From a virus, in the UHGV virus genome UHGV-0324336: a stretch of 45,108 nt of DNA, one strand, 5' to 3'. The notes under the pieces are model-generated. The model saw only the letters and a program-made list of their open reading frames with translations. It made no database searches and was not told the origin of the DNA. Positions 9,464-35,443 of this stretch are shown piece after piece. The position numbers and the translations under genes are program-made. Every line of letters starts with the position of its first letter. Position 1 is the first letter of the stretch.

Positions 9464-10843
9464 ATGTGGAAAGATAAGTATATTTGTCATAAATGCGTGA
9501 ACGATAAATATGTCATGCAGCATATAATAAAAACCGGAAATAATGTTCGGATTTGCTCTTACTGCAAAAGGAAGCGTAAAAACATCCACCTCAAATATAT
9601 TCTCAAGATGATGAATGAGGTTTTTGAGTACTACTATGATATGTATGAGGATATCTATGATTCCGGGCGCGGTGATAGCGCGCAGGATGTCATCTGCGGA
9701 GAACTGGGCGTCGAATGGGACGTAGCTGAAGATATTTATGAATTTCTTTGTGATGAATATAATCCGCATAACGATTATGACTACATCCGGTATAATGATG
9801 GGTTTGTTTATCGGCACATAAATCACTATAGCGGAGAGCTTGCGCATACCTGGAGTAAAGCCACTGACTCCCTTATGAAAGAAACACGATATTTTAACCG
9901 TGAAGTTAATGATTTCCTGGATTCACTTTTCAGTGATATCGATAAACTAAAAAACAGAGACAGTAATTCACCGATAAAAACTCTGACTGATGAGGTTCAT
10001 CTTTTTCGTGCAAGGGTCTTTGAGGACCAAGAGGAAGTAAAGCAAGCCTTGGAGCAGCCCGAGAAAAATTTTGGACCTCCCCCATCAACTTTGGCTCGGT
10101 CGGGCCGTATGAACGCACAGGGGATTTCAGTATTTTACGGTGCAACCTCAGTGAATTTGGCAATTGCTGAAGTAAGGCCGCCCGTCGGCAGTATTGTAGT
10201 AACGGCCTGTTTTGTACCGTTACGCGAGCTAAAAGTGCTGGACATTTCTGCCCTTGACTCGATTAGTTTCGGCTCAGGTAGTAAATTTGATCCTCAGACT
10301 CGCAAAACCAGTGAGCGCGCGATTTTTTTCAGTACGCTTTCCCGTAAGTTGACGCTTCCTACTTTTGGAAAAAGGCAGGACAGTGATTACCTCATCACCC
10401 AAGTGGTTGCCGATTACCTAGGTGACCGAAATAAATTTAAGCTTGATGGTGTCAGCTTTAAATCTACCCAGGTAGATGCCAACGGTGAGGATGCTGAGAT
10501 AGGATATAATGTCGTTCTGTTTAATAAGTCTTCCGGCGTCAGGCATGCCGCAGATAAATCTCGCCGATATAATGTTGAGATGTATGAACACATCGAAGAT
10601 GACCAGTATGCTTTTGTTCCGGAAATTCAGTTAATAGTTGAGGAACAAATAAAACCGAGACATATGGGTTCATTTTCATCCTCGCATGACAAAAATGATG
10701 CACTACTGTTGAAAACCAACAGTATGACTTATCATAAAATTACTGGTGTAAAATACCAAACAAGTGAGACGGAGATTCATCAGGGAGATAGTGTTCGAAA
10801 ACAAGAGCCACCTCAGAAATTCGATGACCTGATGGACTTCTGA
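9464..10843 (+). CDS. RES-domain protein (putative NAD+-targeting effector) with N-terminal CxxC…CxxC zinc-ribbon domain
   Basis: Candidate RES triad R215 (GRMN), E236 (LAIAEV), S331 (DGVSFKS) with intervening YG; N-terminal C8-x2-C11…C31-x2-C34; AT-rich codon usage. Confidence 0.65.
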   Translation: MWKDKYICHKCVNDKYVMQHIIKTGNNVRICSYCKRKRKNIHLKYILKMMNEVFEYYYDMYEDIYDSGRGDSAQDVICGELGVEWDVAEDIYEFLCDEYNPHNDYDYIRYNDGFVYRHINHYSGELAHTWSKATDSLMKETRYFNREVNDFLDSLFSDIDKLKNRDSNSPIKTLTDEVHLFRARVFEDQEEVKQALEQPEKNFGPPPSTLARSGRMNAQGISVFYGATSVNLAIAEVRPPVGSIVVTACFVPLRELKVLDISALDSISFGSGSKFDPQTRKTSERAIFFSTLSRKLTLPTFGKRQDSDYLITQVVADYLGDRNKFKLDGVSFKSTQVDANGEDAEIGYNVVLFNKSSGVRHAADKSRRYNVEMYEHIEDDQYAFVPEIQLIVEEQIKPRHMGSFSSSHDKNDALLLKTNSMTYHKITGVKYQTSETEIHQGDSVRKQEPPQKFDDLMDF

Positions 10844-11304: not shown

Positions 11305-12228
11305 TTAGTGTAATTCCGAAAGGAGCCTAGTAACAAACTCTTTATATGTTGTAGCTTTATAATCAAGCTTACGGTTTTCCTGTCTCATCACCGCGATGAG
11401 AAGACAAGCTGTAAAACACCAGAAGGGCGATGAATCTGAAAGGTTGTACCCCCCTATCATTGTTTGAATCCTTACTGCTATAGATGGATACTCTTCACCA
11501 CCCCATTTATCGATATCTGATGTTAAAGCGTGTATAGTAAAGGCGGCAAGTGTTATCCCCATTGCTCGTTTTTGCATGACCTCTTCATAGGTATGCCCAG
11601 CTTTTTTAGCATAGACTCCGACGCCCTTAGTTATATATTCACGAGCCCAAGAGTCACAGGCTAACTCTTCTTCATCCTTCTCTTGGGGATTTTCATGTTT
11701 TTTTTCTTCGGCTCGTGCTTGAACATGTTTATACTCATGAAGTATAGAAAAAGACAATGCTAATGCTACTAGATCAAAAACAGCCTGTTCTTGAATATTA
11801 TTCAAACTATCTCGCGCATCTGTTGGAAAAGGAATATCTTGAGGCCATGTAATATCAGCCGTATTCGCAACGCTTAGCAAAGACTTTGAAATATACAAAT
11901 GCTGTTTATAATTTAGTTCAAATTGGCCACGTTCTTCATCAGATTCTAAAGCCGACTCTAACGTCACACCTAGTAAGCATGCTTTTACTAGGGCTGGAGC
12001 ATATGTCTCAATCGTAAACCATGTACTAAACCCAAATAACCAAAAGAAATCGATAGTTTTAGAGTCAAACTCGATGCGCCTACTAGTTGCATTCATTGTT
12101 GATCCTAGGGCATCCTCTGCAAGTTCGACCGTGTGTTTATAGCTCTTCCAGGTCTGACAAAGTTCATCAGCATTCTCAGGAACAGCCCCTCTTAGGAGGT
12201 TTAAAACTATAGTATCTAGTGATGGCAT
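11305..12228 (-). CDS. putative zinc metallopeptidase (HExxH), possibly Lit-like phage-exclusion protease
   Basis: Single HEYKH motif at residues 164-168 of 307 aa; size and motif position close to e14 Lit (297 aa, HExxH ~160-164, recalled); AT-rich. Confidence 0.5.
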   Translation of the reverse strand: MPSLDTIVLNLLRGAVPENADELCQTWKSYKHTVELAEDALGSTMNATSRRIEFDSKTIDFFWLFGFSTWFTIETYAPALVKACLLGVTLESALESDEERGQFELNYKQHLYISKSLLSVANTADITWPQDIPFPTDARDSLNNIQEQAVFDLVALALSFSILHEYKHVQARAEEKKHENPQEKDEEELACDSWAREYITKGVGVYAKKAGHTYEEVMQKRAMGITLAAFTIHALTSDIDKWGGEEYPSIAVRIQTMIGGYNLSDSSPFWCFTACLLIAVMRQENRKLDYKATTYKEFVTRLLSELH

Positions 12229-12605: not shown

Positions 12606-13139
12606 CTATATTCCTTTTTTATAATCTCTAGACAAAAAATCAAACAGGACTTTACGTTTGTAAAGTAACGTAACCCTTACATTTTCAAGATCTGACTCCT
12701 TAATATCAGGTTTGCCATCATAATAATTTCTCCGCATTGCTTTTAAATAATCACCGTAGTCTCTTAAAGCAACTGATGTGTCAGTTAAACCTAAAAGCAA
12801 AAGCTTCGACTCTGCAACTGTCAAGCTTTTAAAATTGTCAAATAAATCTAATTTTGTTTTATTTAACTCCTCTTGCCTTTCTCTGGTAAGATCCAATCCC
12901 TTTTGTTCCTTATTTCTAACCCATTCAATTATCAAAGCCCAATAGCGTAAGGATATATGTGTCATATCCTCAATTTGAGTGCTTACAGATTCTAATGAAT
13001 CATAATAGCGACGACTTTTATCTTTATCAAATTCATGTTTGTGATTCATTTTTGAAATAATAAATGTACCTGTCAGCGTTATTATACCACCAAATCCAAT
13101 CTTCACAGCCGTATCAACAACTTCCACCCAGGTTGTCAT
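12606..13139 (-). CDS. hypothetical membrane-anchored protein (177 aa)
   Basis: N-terminal TM helix (VKIGFGGIITLTGTFIIS) then charged helical domain; AT-rich island gene with own upstream gap. Confidence 0.55.
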   Translation of the reverse strand: MTTWVEVVDTAVKIGFGGIITLTGTFIISKMNHKHEFDKDKSRRYYDSLESVSTQIEDMTHISLRYWALIIEWVRNKEQKGLDLTRERQEELNKTKLDLFDNFKSLTVAESKLLLLGLTDTSVALRDYGDYLKAMRRNYYDGKPDIKESDLENVRVTLLYKRKVLFDFLSRDYKKGI

Positions 13140-13424: not shown

Positions 13425-13847
13425 TCACTTCAATAAATACCGAACATCCCCCTGATAAAACGACAATATGCGCTGCATAACTTCACTCTTCCGGCACTCG
13501 CGACAGATTATGTTCTGACGCCTGTCGTAGCGACGTATTTCTCCGTCAGGTAATGACCAGATAAGGTCCGGATCAACCGCAGATGGTTTCTTCAGCTTTG
13601 CCCTTGAGAGCTTTTTACGGGCATTTTGCCAGTCCTTACGCGCCTGTTCAGACGGGAATAACCCGTAACCAGAGTTGTATACATCGCCGCTGGCAACCAG
13701 CTCTCTTGCGAGAACGCTCATCAGATATCTTGTCGCACCTGTTTTGACTTCCAGTTGCCGTAACGTCTCACGCCCACTCTGGCGTACGAGTTCAACAACC
13801 TGCCCTTTAATTTTTTCTCGCTCTTCTTGTGTAAAAACTTTTGCCAC
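13425..13847 (-). CDS. hypothetical protein (140 aa) downstream of replication initiator
   Basis: ORF track; possible winged-helix segment; occupies the position of a helicase loader but has no Walker motifs. Confidence 0.45.
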   Translation of the reverse strand: MAKVFTQEEREKIKGQVVELVRQSGRETLRQLEVKTGATRYLMSVLARELVASGDVYNSGYGLFPSEQARKDWQNARKKLSRAKLKKPSAVDPDLIWSLPDGEIRRYDRRQNIICRECRKSEVMQRILSFYQGDVRYLLK

Positions 13848-13887: not shown

Positions 13888-14964
13888 TTACCCCCTGAAG
13901 CCCGGTGGAATTTCGGTATCCGGTTCAGAAATATGATTCACACAACGCTGGTTGTTCGTGCCGCTTACCGGGAGCAGCCAGGGGTTTTCAAAATTCCGGT
14001 CCGGTCCAAAAAACGTCGTTGCTCGCTGAACAAATTCCGTTCCCGTTTTCCCGGTAGCCGCAAGGTATCTTGCGTAACGCCTCACGCCATCCAGCATGGC
14101 CTCTGGTGACACCCCCTCGCGTAATCTGGCCTTCCAAGCACTGAAAGCGGATTTCTTCGGGTTTGCCCCAGCACGCAACGGGTATTCCCGCCAGACCTGT
14201 TCGAACACATCCGGATAATCCACTCGTCCCACAGGCTGCCCGGTGTTTTCCGGGACTACCCGATCGGCTTCCCGCTGAATGGCGGAATCGGCTTCAGGCT
14301 GCTGCAGTTGGTGTGATTGCTCCGGCCTTGCGGTCATCACCTGCTGCACAGCGCCCGAATCGGCTTTCAGCGCATACGCTGAATCGGCTTCCGGTGTCGT
14401 GCCTGCTGGCTGACCAAGATTGACGGTCTGAACATCCCCTGCCTGGTTCGTGGCGTTTTTTACGCCATGGACCATAGTGTTTTGATCTTCTTGATCTGTA
14501 TCTTTATCTGTATCTTTATCTGTCGTGACTCGTCGTGACATGTGCGTGACATTTCGTGACGCACCGTGACAATCGCCATTTTGTTCCCGCTTTCTTTCCC
14601 TCTCTCGCTGCGCCCTCTTGCGCTCTGCAGGAGATTTTGCGGTTTGCGAAATATTGCCGTTGTCCTCTTTAAGAACCTGGCGTTTTTCCCATCCAGTGAT
14701 TAAATCACCATCAAGTACCCGCCCCTGCATCGTCTGCAAAATTGAATCAATTACCTCTTCTGTCACGTCGAGCGCACTTGCCAAATCTTCTGTCGTGACA
14801 TCAATGTGACCTCGCGTGACATTTCGTGACGCGCTCACCAGGAGGTGGATATACACTGCCATCACTGTTGCAATTGGCTGCCCTGACACCCTAGCAATTG
14901 TTCGCCACTTAGGGTCATTTGGCATGTCATGCCATAATCTGAGCCAAGCGTTAGCCATACTCAC
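13888..14964 (-). CDS. replication initiator / replisome organiser (lambda O-like role)
   Basis: Position after cro/YdaT module; N-terminal HTH-like region; two iteron clusters inside the ORF as in lambdoid ori-within-O. Confidence 0.65.
   Translation of the reverse strand: MSMANAWLRLWHDMPNDPKWRTIARVSGQPIATVMAVYIHLLVSASRNVTRGHIDVTTEDLASALDVTEEVIDSILQTMQGRVLDGDLITGWEKRQVLKEDNGNISQTAKSPAERKRAQRERERKREQNGDCHGASRNVTHMSRRVTTDKDTDKDTDQEDQNTMVHGVKNATNQAGDVQTVNLGQPAGTTPEADSAYALKADSGAVQQVMTARPEQSHQLQQPEADSAIQREADRVVPENTGQPVGRVDYPDVFEQVWREYPLRAGANPKKSAFSAWKARLREGVSPEAMLDGVRRYARYLAATGKTGTEFVQRATTFFGPDRNFENPWLLPVSGTNNQRCVNHISEPDTEIPPGFRG
14524..14570. repeat. iteron cluster 1 (5 x CGTGAC at 10-11 bp spacing), candidate ori
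   Basis: CGTGAC at 14524, 14534, 14545, 14555, 14565; preceded by TATCTTTATCTG tandem repeat (14491-14523). Confidence 0.6.
14794..14830. repeat. iteron cluster 2 (4 x (C/T)GTGAC at ~10 bp spacing)
   Basis: CGTGAC at 14794, TGTGAC 14805, CGTGAC 14815, CGTGAC 14825. Confidence 0.5.
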
Positions 14965-15029: not shown

Positions 15030-15455
15030 TCAATGTACTGCCACAGCATTTCCTGCCGGGCCACCACGGTTCATCTGATTGAAACCGGCGATTGCCACTG
15101 CGACAAAATCATCAGCGTCTCTCACCAATCGCTCCCGCGTCTCCACCAGCTCCCGAAAATAAGCTGAACTGTGGCTGCGCATTCTGGCCACCAGCAAAGG
15201 TGGCATTGCCTTTTCGATCGCTGGTAACAACGCCTGAATTTTTTCAACTGCATCAGGGGTGTCTTTCTCTACCCAGCGGAAAATTTTCTGGGTATTGCGA
15301 GCCAGGGCTTCCGGATGGCTGTCGTCATACAGTTCAGGAAACGTCATACCCAACTCAAAATAAGCCTGGGTTATTCCAGCTGCTGGAACTTTTTCGCCAT
15401 CAGGACGCGCCCAGGCATTCATCGCCATGCGGATGTGTTCATGCTTGATTTTCAT
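15030..15455 (-). CDS. YdaT-family protein (Rac YdaT-like; proposed CII-like regulator/toxin)
   Basis: 141 aa, starts MKIKHEHIRMAMNAWA…; ATGA-coupled to the cro-like gene as ydaS-ydaT are in Rac (recalled). Confidence 0.55.
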   Translation of the reverse strand: MKIKHEHIRMAMNAWARPDGEKVPAAGITQAYFELGMTFPELYDDSHPEALARNTQKIFRWVEKDTPDAVEKIQALLPAIEKAMPPLLVARMRSHSSAYFRELVETRERLVRDADDFVAVAIAGFNQMNRGGPAGNAVAVH

Positions 15456-15682
15456 GAATCCCCCCCTTGGTTAGAAGGCGGATTATGATCAGAACCGGGA
15501 ATGACAACCGTCGGTATGTGTAACTCATATTTGAGCGCCCCGGCAGTGACTGCCTGAATTAGCAACGCCCATTTCCACGGAACCTCTTCCCCCCACATGC
15601 TGACTGTGGTTTTTGACGTTCCTAGAGCTGCGGCTGTTTTAACAACTCCGCCAAAATAGCCTAATACTTCTGATTTTTTCAT
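15452..15682 (-). CDS. Cro/YdaS-like HTH regulator (76 aa)
   Basis: MKKSEVLGYFGGVVKTAAALGTSKTTVSMW… HTH; GGAG 6 nt upstream of ATG at 15682; divergent from cI. Confidence 0.7.
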   Translation of the reverse strand: MKKSEVLGYFGGVVKTAAALGTSKTTVSMWGEEVPWKWALLIQAVTAGALKYELHIPTVVIPGSDHNPPSNQGGDS

Positions 15683-15710
15683 AAGTCGCTCCATAAAACT
15701 GAACGCCAAA

Positions 15711-15773
15711 ATTTTAATAATCAAAACCAAAGAAAGTCAAGAAACAAAACCATCTGTGTTTTAAAATCAAAAC
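15711..15773. promoter_or_regulatory. OR-like operator region between cro and cI
   Basis: ATTTTAATAATCAAAAC (15711-15727) and GTTTTAAAATCAAAAC (15758-15773, abutting cI ATG): inverted half-sites GTTTT/AAAAC. Confidence 0.45.
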
Positions 15774-16400
15774 ATGAGCAAGCAAACAATATCTGAACGC
15801 ATAACCCAACGTATGCATGCGCTAAACCTGAAAGGCAAAGACCTTGTCAATGCCACTGGCGCATCAAAAGGCTCCGTAAGTCAATGGATGAACGGTGGAG
15901 GAGCGCCGTCCTCGCGTTACATAAGTTCACTGGCAAAGATATTGAAAGTAAACGAAAATTGGCTTCTTAATGGAGGAGAGTTAAATACAGGTGATTCGCT
16001 TGATCTATCTTTACCGCCGATAAAAACGGTTCCGCTACTATCAGCAAGCTGGAGTGATTATATGAAAAATTCCTCAATAACCTCTTGTGTGCAGCTTGTC
16101 GGAGAAATCCCGGCCAATACCTTTGCAGTTGTTCTAGAGAGTGACAGTATGTCAACATCTGGTGGGGGAGTTTCCATCCCAAATGGTTCAACAGTTTTTG
16201 TTGATCCCGATCGAACCGTACAACCAGGAAATATTGTCCTTGCCTTACCCAAAGGGACCACAACACCTGTCATTCGTAAACTGGAGATAGAAGGGCCGGA
16301 TATTCTTTTAGTCCCCACGAATCCTCGCTACCCTTCAATTATGCTGGATGATCTATCTTGCATATTGGGCGTATGCTTTAAAATTCAACAAGATATTTAA
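15774..16400 (+). CDS. CI-like prophage repressor (HTH_XRE + S24 LexA-type autopeptidase)
   Basis: N-terminal HTH (ATGASKGSVSQWMNG); C-terminal S24 signature with Ser in ESDSMS and Lys in VIRKL. Confidence 0.85.
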   Translation: MSKQTISERITQRMHALNLKGKDLVNATGASKGSVSQWMNGGGAPSSRYISSLAKILKVNENWLLNGGELNTGDSLDLSLPPIKTVPLLSASWSDYMKNSSITSCVQLVGEIPANTFAVVLESDSMSTSGGGVSIPNGSTVFVDPDRTVQPGNIVLALPKGTTTPVIRKLEIEGPDILLVPTNPRYPSIMLDDLSCILGVCFKIQQDI

Positions 16401-17565: not shown

Positions 17566-17623
17566 TTTCTGGTGACGTTTGGCGGTATCAGTTTTACTCC
17601 GTGACTGCTCTGCCGCCATTTTT
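17566..17623 (+). ncRNA. dicF: DicF small regulatory RNA (ftsZ-targeting)
   Basis: TTTCTGGTGACGTTTGGCGGTATCAGTTTTACTCCGTGACTGCTCTGCCGCC + T-run matches recalled 53-nt DicF; located between ydfC and dicB as in Qin. Confidence 0.75.
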
Positions 17624-17792
17624 AAAGTGAATTTTGTGATGCGGTGAATGCGGCTAAGCGCACGCGGAACAGTTAAAACCAAAAACAGTGTTATGGGTGG
17701 ATTCTCTGTATCCGGCGTTAATTGTTAACTGGTTAACGTCACCTGGAGGCACCAGGCACCGCATCACAAAACTCATTGTTGAGGGCGCGATA

Positions 17793-35048: not shown

Positions 35049-35443
35049 TTTCCCGCAGAAACAGGCTCTGCAGGCCCGGCGTCCTCTGCCTGTTCAGGGG
35101 CATTATTCACCACAAACTCATACATACCGGACAGCCGGTACACCACGTTTTCAGCATGAGAAATTGCCTCTGTGGGCCAGGTGGTAAGCACTTCCTGCTC
35201 AATCTGTTTAACGGCTTCATTCATGGACGGCATCTGCGTCTTCTTCGGATGGTTATGCCACAGAGACATCGCCACCACAAAAGCGCCGGTTCTGATGACG
35301 TCTTCCACAGTAAACTTCCGGTTACTGTCGGATTCTGCCTGCTGTTTCATCAGGGCGAGATGCTCAATACGCTGCAGGGCTGACAGTTCAGAAAGCGTGA
35401 CGGTCACGCCGTTATATTCAAATGATTCGGTTTTCAGGAACAT
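35030..35443 (-). CDS. G: tail assembly chaperone G
   Basis: 137 aa (lambda G 140 aa; apparent 9-nt difference from the lambda map). Confidence 0.9.
   Translation of the reverse strand: MFLKTESFEYNGVTVTLSELSALQRIEHLALMKQQAESDSNRKFTVEDVIRTGAFVVAMSLWHNHPKKTQMPSMNEAVKQIEQEVLTTWPTEAISHAENVVYRLSGMYEFVVNNAPEQAEDAGPAEPVSAGKCSTVS
35048..35054 (-). promoter_or_regulatory. programmed -1 ribosomal frameshift slippery site G GGA AAG (G to G-T)
   Basis: Plus-strand CTTTCCC = minus-strand GGGAAAG at the G/T overlap, as in lambda. Confidence 0.8.

Follow-up and report, generated by a model that had tools for sequence, protein, structure and literature searches.

A candidate iteron-type replication origin inside the initiator gene of a lambdoid prophage

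The 45,108-nucleotide (nt) virus genome UHGV-0324336 (hereafter the window, meaning this whole stretch of DNA) carries a minus-strand replication initiator gene within an open reading frame (ORF) at positions 13888–14964. Inside this gene lie two arrays of short direct repeats, a purine-rich tract, and an inverted repeat, which together probably mark a replication origin. The ATG at 14958 is most likely the true start of the gene; it is preceded by GAGGTG, and relatives also begin there. Exact copies of CGTGAC were found on the plus strand at 14524, 14534, 14545, 14555, and 14565, with spacings of 10, 11, 10, and 10 base pairs (bp), in full agreement with a preliminary description of five copies at 10–11-bp phasing. 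The second array, for which that description counted four more copies, contained three exact ones (14794, 14815, and 14825), whereas the fourth, at 14805–14810, was TGTGAC, with one mismatch. All copies of both arrays lay within the ORF, as had been stated. In the orientation of the gene, which is used hereafter, CGTGAC reads GTCACG; the four-copy array is called array A and the five-copy array is called array B (Table 1).

The clustering of these repeats, referred to below as iterons, was non-random. Since the window as a whole held 33 copies of the hexamer on both strands (20 expected), approximately 0.14 copies would be expected in the 307-bp interval in which eight same-strand copies were observed. 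The nine repeat units occupied reading frames 2, 0, 1, and 0 in array A and 1, 2, 0, 2, and 0 in array B, and encoded the peptides SR, VT, GH, or CH. When the gene was recoded synonymously with its protein sequence kept (20,000 resamplings using the codon usage of the window), GTCACG occurred 0.72 times on average and five times at most, compared with the eight copies observed. A hexamer scan found no further iteron cluster anywhere in the window. One additional copy, absent from the preliminary description and oriented opposite to the arrays, was present at the same position in most relatives sharing the GTCACG word, and its equivalent was absent from relatives with the CGAACGC word. It is weakly indicated as a possible member of array A and, because it is confined to the GTCACG class, we do not claim it as a feature of the family. 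In the late (structural gene) region, a perfect 13-bp palindrome at 35396–35408 (CGTGACgGTCACG) consists of two inverted iteron hexamers and may be a chance occurrence or a distant initiator site.

Read along the gene, array B is followed by an A-rich tract of low guanine-plus-cytosine (GC) content. Tandem Repeats Finder recovered from it a 12-bp repeat, TCTTTATCTGTA, in 2.9 copies (14489–14523, 95% matches); a tandem repeat adjoining the five-copy array had been described previously, and it was indeed present, but in gene orientation it comes after the array and not before it. The GC minimum of the initiator gene (0.33, against 0.53 gene-wide) was located at 14460–14519. The imperfect inverted repeat directly distal to the tract gave a DNA fold z-score of −3.0 and could act as a hairpin or cruciform, as a single-strand initiation signal, or as an antisense terminator. 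Two GATC (Dam) sites were found inside the tract, at 14484–14487 and 14493–14496, and AGATCT at the tract end was also present in enterobacterial relatives, which hints at an influence of methylation or SeqA on the origin. We also considered the tract as a DnaA-trio; judged by eye, its trinucleotide pattern did not fit the published trio consensus, and membership was dropped as a claim.

Table 1. Positions of the origin features and of the surrounding early genes in the window (gene nt, nucleotide position within the initiator gene).
Feature	Positions	Strand	Details
Replication initiator gene	13888–14958	−	356 residues; ORF 13888–14964
Array A	14794–14830	−	GTCACG, GTCACG, GTCACA, GTCACG; gene nt 129–165; spacing 10, 10, 11 bp
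Inverted iteron copy	14762–14767	+	Single copy, inverted relative to the arrays; gene nt 192–197; codons D-V-T
Array B	14524–14570	−	Five exact GTCACG iterons; gene nt 389–435; spacing 10, 10, 11, 10 bp
A-rich, purine-rich, low-GC tract	14476–14523	−	GATAAAGATACA x3, then GATCAAGAAGATCAAAACAC; candidate DNA unwinding element
Imperfect inverted repeat	14444–14474		13-pair stem, 5-nt loop; directly distal to the A-rich tract
DUF977/LygF gene	13425–13847	−	Directly downstream of the initiator gene
cII/YdaT-like gene	15030–15455	−	
cro-like gene	15452–15730	−	
cI-like repressor gene	15774–16400	+	

The initiator protein matched phrog_3729 ('replication initiation protein') of the PHROG collection over its full length (E = 1e-257). 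Its remote matches were to replisome-organizer and DnaD-like families, including weak replisome-organizer matches to phrog_4880 (4e-6) and phrog_5968 (2e-4). A Pfam scan returned no family at E ≤ 0.01, the replisome-organizer family PF09681 included, and an NCBIfam scan returned nothing except a DnaT tail. Pairwise BLASTP against lambda O gave a best E-value of only 0.08, located in the low-complexity linker, and with nothing from Pfam either, the earlier label 'O-like' for this ORF could not be upheld. An AlphaFold model covering residues 1–159, confident for residues 11–90, showed helices at 3–14, 16–25, and 29–45, a loop at 46–55, a helix-turn-helix at 56–77, and a beta wing, followed by a basic helix at 110–127 and disorder from residue 128 on. 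The order of domains is a winged helix of the DnaD N-terminal-domain type (residues 1–95, hereafter the N-domain), the basic helix, a disordered linker carrying the origin, a C-terminal domain, and a tail (SEPDTEIPPGFRG). Given this modelled layout, array A codes for the loop of residues 43–55 (ASRNVTRGHIDVT) in the DNA-binding domain and array B for part of the disordered linker (CHGASRNVTHMSRRVT).

The last ~25 residues (NHISEPDTEIPPGFRG, codons ~13888–13965) matched the extreme C-terminus of DnaT (primosomal protein I), a replication-restart protein of the host. Residues 332–356 aligned with the C-termini of 6aep, 2ru8, and 9zbt, and the DnaT C-terminal motif SEPDxxIPPGFRG was present. The full-length DnaT equivalog NF002770 scored 18.2 bits against a cut-off of 201, with profile positions 156–179 alone matching. 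The same tail was found in the initiators of mEp460-type phages and phiSTEC1589, whose N-domains are unrelated, which suggests that it may be a common adaptor peptide for host replication proteins. The initiator appears to belong to the DnaD-like winged-helix proteins of the 'replisome organizer' type, and it ends in a DnaT-like tail. Its acidic linker is encoded in part by four copies of (A)ATCGGCTT on the plus strand (14263, 14286, 14359, and 14382), arranged as two 36-nt units 96 bp apart (span 14263–14394) and translated as EADSA, KADSG, EADSA, and EADR. The phiSTEC1589 initiator, whose N-domain is different, has this region too. The copies may form an acidic repeat that acts in the protein, perhaps in the manner of the PriB-binding acidic linker of DnaT, or may be an additional DNA site.

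To compare the locus among relatives, we used an alignment of the N-domain to scan a single genome of each species and obtained 60 loci (39–99% identity) from Enterobacterales, Pseudomonas, Bordetella, Acidovorax, Pseudothauera, Entomomonas, and metagenome-assembled genomes of Acidobacteriota and Gemmataceae, with locus GC contents of 33–69%. Fifty-five N-domain homologues made up the set for array comparison. Twenty-five genes, that of the window among them, had GTCAC both at gene nt 129, 139, 149, and 160 and farther along, at approximately nt 370–500; the array B site of relatives held 3–7 copies. More distant relatives showed the same layout with words of different classes (GTCACG, GTAACG, CGAACGC, and TGACGC), all following the common pattern xxN-ACG. 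The iteron core in the window's class is the asymmetric GTCACG(M), and spacing across relatives was 10 bp in 98 cases and 11 bp in 29.

The two arrays covaried. A 5-mer occurred at least three times in region A of 48 of the 55 genes, and 42 of these 48 reused the same word at least three times in region B, against a cross-gene control rate of 8.8%. The density of the region A word was 1.79 per 100 nt in region B and 0.10 in the remaining gene, and the word followed the N-domain subfamily of the gene carrying the repeats. Conservation at synonymous positions was assessed in 20 genes that aligned without gaps, from hosts of 34–69% GC. Third-codon positions in the array A interval (nt 127–166) had a mean conservation of 0.83, compared with 0.55 outside it (p = 6e-4); within the interval, values were 0.85–1.0 in the hexamers and 0.3–0.5 in the spacers. 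Because all three reading frames are used and the synonymous third positions of the hexamers are conserved, the iterons are DNA-level features and not peptide repeats.

Copy number in the arrays changed by whole units. In an Escherichia albertii relative (L005, gene nt 129–181), array A is lengthened by a 21-nt insertion that brings two further iterons (six in total) and lengthens the loop of the DNA-binding domain by seven residues (TCHGVSL); this loop lies on the surface and tolerates insertions. The same insertion was found in the E. coli clusters P0016 and P0017 (222 and 87 member sequences, respectively) and is a common natural copy-number polymorphism.

The tract beside array B was likewise conserved. 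In every word class, array B was followed immediately by (C/T)AGATAAAGATAAAGA... or a close purine-rich variant, and an (A)GATAAA-type tract directly after array B was found in at least 41 of the 55 relatives, whatever the iteron word, host GC content, or frame. It was retained even in hosts of 65–69% GC, and its first GAT lay in any of the three reading frames, depending on the gene. Perfect stems in the 100 nt after array B averaged 6.1 bp, compared with 4.9 bp elsewhere in the genes, and stems of at least 7 bp were present in 36% of these windows against 8% of all other windows of the same genes (p = 9e-9). An earlier hairpin test based on minimum free energy in the 60 nt past the automatically detected tract end gave no signal; detection of the tract end failed in many genes, and the stem-length test replaced it. 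Stem sequences varied from gene to gene, and the loops were often TAAC, TATC, or TGAC.

The surroundings of this cassette varied. C-terminal domains, downstream genes (DnaB helicase, DnaC-like ATPase, or unrelated ORFs), and immunity genes all differed among relatives, so that the N-domain and its origin cassette form the conserved unit. The phiSTEC1589 initiator combines a C-terminal half like that of the window with another N-domain, and the repeats are absent from it. An mEp460-type initiator, also with a window-like C-terminal half and another N-domain, carries five copies of GGTCAAAATG at 23-bp spacing; in mEp460_ev081 the repeats are ~12 bp long with a GGTCAAAATG core (L003 3990–4110, minus strand) and are followed by an A-rich repeat of the ACAGAGAAT type. 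These repeats and the A-rich tract occupy the same relative position in the gene as those of the window. Three low-GC relatives lacked array A and kept 2–3 degenerate repeats and the tract. Two loci (L048 and L060) lacked the usual arrays and contained clusters of CTACGTA-type palindromic repeats at gene nt ~320–380 and ~640–700; their proteins are longer, with an inserted segment. Several metagenomic proteins of 178–193 residues (P0042, P0060, P0061, P0073, P0099, P0101, and P0109) have the N-domain fused straight to an HNH endonuclease domain (PF01844, PF14279) that replaces the linker and the C-terminal domain, and may be iteron-targeted nucleases or domesticated derivatives.

The locus thus brings together an initiator gene, at least three phased direct repeats, and a low-GC tract, the generic composition of an iteron origin with an unwinding element. 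We consider it probable, at roughly three chances in four, that 14444–14830 is the replication origin of a lambdoid prophage and is thus contained within its own initiator gene. That the repeats are initiator-binding iterons marking this origin is strongly supported by comparative sequence evidence, because synonymous sites are conserved, the iteron word covaries between the arrays, and a low-GC tract with a hairpin is conserved beside array B. Array B and the (GATAAA)n tract would constitute the core of the origin and array A an accessory binding array.

The repeats, their DNA-level conservation and covariation, the conserved tract and hairpin beside them, and the fold and tail motif of the protein are established by the sequence analysis; from them we infer binding, melting, helicase recruitment, and origin firing along the following lines. 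The N-terminal winged helix would bind the 6–7-bp iterons GTCACG(A/C); the iterons are one helical turn apart and so lie on one face of the duplex, and binding is expected to be cooperative. Array B would nucleate an O-some-like complex beside the ~48-bp A-rich purine tract, (GATAAA/GATACA)n, which negative supercoiling and early rightward transcription across the gene would cause to melt. The inverted repeat past the tract may extrude and help melting, priming, or helicase loading. Array A, with four copies ~225 bp to the promoter-proximal side, might supply additional initiator as a looping enhancer or serve as an autoregulatory site. Finally, the C-terminal half with its DnaT-like tail would recruit host DnaB/DnaC; the way in which DnaT itself brings in these proteins is not yet understood (PMC13377028).

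Several observations count against this interpretation. The fold search returned a generic winged helix with likeness to the DnaD N-terminal domain and no more, and the likeness to DnaT is limited to ~25 C-terminal residues (E ~0.02). The hairpin is enriched among relatives but not universal, and it resembles an intrinsic terminator: a terminator scan flagged 14444–14474 on the plus strand, followed by the T-rich TAGTGTTTTG. Array A was missing or unrecognisable in 7 of the 55 relatives, and its role is therefore uncertain. The preliminary description took both arrays together as initiator sites; they are not equivalent, with array B and the tract as the core. In addition, many E. coli copies of the prophage may be defective, and the element might therefore be inactive in some hosts.

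One rival explanation is that the arrays bind the initiator for regulation only, through autorepression, a transcription roadblock, or handcuffing copy control, with the origin elsewhere. Plasmid iterons are known to act in copy control and offer a general precedent; array A also sits in the 5' portion of the gene, well away from the A-rich tract, and is dispensable in some relatives. We nevertheless regard a purely regulatory role as unlikely because array B adjoins the conserved low-GC purine tract and hairpin, a classic origin signature, and the 45-kb window holds no other iteron cluster; the origins of lambda and SPP1, moreover, occupy the same relative position. Even less probable, and in our view very unlikely, is that the repeats are bound by another protein (the immunity repressor, the CII/YdaT-like protein, DUF977/LygF, or a host factor) or form a packaging or recombination signal. 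DUF977 is small, is encoded immediately downstream, and weakly matches a PHROG family annotated as DNA-binding (phrog_2391, E = 1.7e-5), but the arrays persist in relatives whose immunity and downstream genes differ, and the N-domain alone co-occurs with them; the repeats also change their word with the N-domain subfamily of the gene in which they lie. No DnaA boxes were found in the origin region.

The terminator-like appearance of the hairpin raises the question of whether the hairpin and the T-rich complement of the tract are an intrinsic terminator or RNA element for antisense transcription, outside the origin. Apart from the flagged segment itself, several relatives have a perfect stem followed by TTTATCTTTATC on the antisense strand. 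Against this, no antisense promoter or gene was evident, Rfam gave no family match in the origin region, the T-run in the window is interrupted and several bases off the stem, and the lambda origin has an analogous palindrome beside an A-rich tract. We judge this explanation improbable; for the hairpin as a sub-element a terminator role is possible, and it is compatible with a role in the origin. A by-product of a repeated peptide motif, or chance, can be given almost no weight: the peptide SRNVT-x5-VTT is present in both arrays, but the copies fall in three reading frames, their number far exceeds the recoding mean (0.72 against 8), the synonymous sites of the hexamers are conserved across phyla, and the linker is predicted to be disordered.

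Two more unusual readings go beyond the iteron origin proposed here, and we hold them jointly to be improbable. The first is self-referential specificity, in which the loop reads the iteron by which it is encoded. Within the folded domain, only residues 45, 46, 48, 51, and 66 separate the GTCACG class from the CGAACGC class; the first four are encoded by array A and residue 66 by the inverted copy, and further class-specific residues (115 and 117) lie in the basic helix. Loop residues 45–51 may merely have changed along with the DNA, or they may belong to the reading head. If the reading were true, the same nucleotides would be both a binding site and the code for the peptide recognising it, and a change of word would alter its reader. 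The second reading takes the tract as a sequence-specific single-strand element: since its sequence, and not merely its AT content, is conserved across iteron classes and C-terminal types, it might be read single-stranded by the initiator oligomer in the manner of a DnaA-trio, instead of acting as a passive unwinding element.

The early region around the initiator gene is lambdoid and Rac-like (Table 1). Beyond DUF977/LygF lie accessory genes, including those for RES-domain and Peptidase_U49 proteins, followed by DUF968, RusA, and Q. The prophage has neither a helicase gene nor a gene for a helicase loader, including in the interval from the initiator to Q, and no primase is encoded here. The accessory genes between the replication and Q regions (9464–10843 on the plus strand; 11305–12228 and 12606–13139 on the minus strand) encode an HEPN/RES-N-terminal and RES-domain protein, a Peptidase_U49 (Lit-like) protein, and a 177-residue ORF without a family, and are probably defence or toxin cargo. 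The DicF small RNA was detected at 17567–17618 on the plus strand (73 bits, E = 3e-15), adjoined by a sub-threshold STnc100-like match at 17630–17770 on the same strand.

Near-identical DNA was found in phages Tritos, Evi, and 204576 and several vB_Eco phages, and 2210 of 5426 complete E. coli genomes (41%) contained the initiator region, for which NCBI/PGAP annotates the product as 'hypothetical protein' or 'phage replisome organizer'. In public data clustered at 50% identity, the N-domain family comprised 1947 cluster representatives at E ≤ 1e-3. In a tblastn search of a phage collection, all phages with the N-domain were recently sequenced and unstudied, and no classical phage carried it. 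Our literature search found no description of this initiator family or its origin, but it covered subscription journals little, and an older account is possible; this widespread family seems to be undescribed.

Array A, array B, the (GATAAA)n tract, and the hairpin together define a module of four parts that is open to testing. The natural specificity classes of the module would allow the co-change of initiator and iteron to be studied where one DNA stretch is both coding sequence and binding site, and through the DnaT-like tail it is a candidate means for a phage without its own loader to recruit the host helicase. Engineering might draw on it for orthogonal replication modules, and in a polylysogen it could help to foresee cross-activation or mutual exclusion of replication among the prophages.

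Comparison with known origins placed the locus closest to those located inside initiator genes. In lambda, four iterons are followed by an A-rich tract and a palindrome in the middle of gene O (PMC7466680), an order that we also read directly in the lambda sequence. The layout inside the initiator gene, which had been likened to the lambda origin, matched this order: array B lies mid-gene and is followed by the purine-skewed tract of 33% GC and the palindrome, with the codons of the N-terminal DNA-binding domain on one side and those of the C-terminal recruitment domain on the other. Further likenesses are that early rightward transcription crosses the origin and that iteron copy number varies with the addition of protein residues, as in Shiga toxin (Stx) phages, whose O proteins have extra iterons. 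The differences concern the iterons, which in lambda are 18–19-bp imperfect palindromes 20–24 bp apart and here have a 6–7-bp asymmetric core every 10–11 bp; the protein, which here has no detectable sequence similarity to O and has a C-terminus resembling the DnaT tail; the second array, which here lies within the codons of the DNA-binding domain; and the downstream gene, which here is DUF977/LygF-like in place of a P-type loader gene. As to the other elements of the protein, the bacterial DnaD N-terminal domain is not known to read iterons sequence-specifically, and the resemblance to DnaT is confined to the tail, at 18 bits against the family cut-off of 201.

The oriL of the Bacillus phage SPP1, in which AB boxes and an AT-rich unwinding element lie inside gene 38, is sufficient for replication in vitro (PMC5737612, PMC6316719). 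It resembles the present locus in that direct repeats and an adjacent AT-rich unwinding element lie in the gene of the initiator, the replisome organizer G38P; NCBI gives the present protein the name 'phage replisome organizer', and its PHROG matches to replisome organizers are remote. PF09681, however, was not matched at E ≤ 0.01, and SPP1 has the loader G39P, the helicase G40P, and a second origin, oriR, whereas neither a loader, a helicase, nor a second cluster was found here. The origins of phage-inducible chromosomal islands (PICIs) and Staphylococcus aureus pathogenicity islands (SaPIs) share short iterons in two sets and an AT-rich putative melting site; their two sets flank the AT-rich region downstream of a pri-rep pair, whereas both arrays lie on one side of it here, within the initiator coding sequence. 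The IncQ plasmid RSF1010 has 20-bp iterons and its own primase and helicase; here there is no primase, and the role of the hairpin is putative. Its oriV resembles the present locus in having a hairpin-forming inverted repeat within an iteron-type origin, the ssiA and ssiB hairpins being priming sites (PMC8567376).

Taken with these systems, the kind of origin is classical, with iterons and an unwinding element inside the initiator gene. What differs from lambda and SPP1 is a non-homologous initiator, asymmetric 6–7-bp iterons spaced by one helical turn, a second array where a loop of the DNA-binding domain is encoded, a (GATAAA)n tract conserved in sequence across all specificity classes, a frequent hairpin, and the absence of a phage loader together with a DnaT-like tail.

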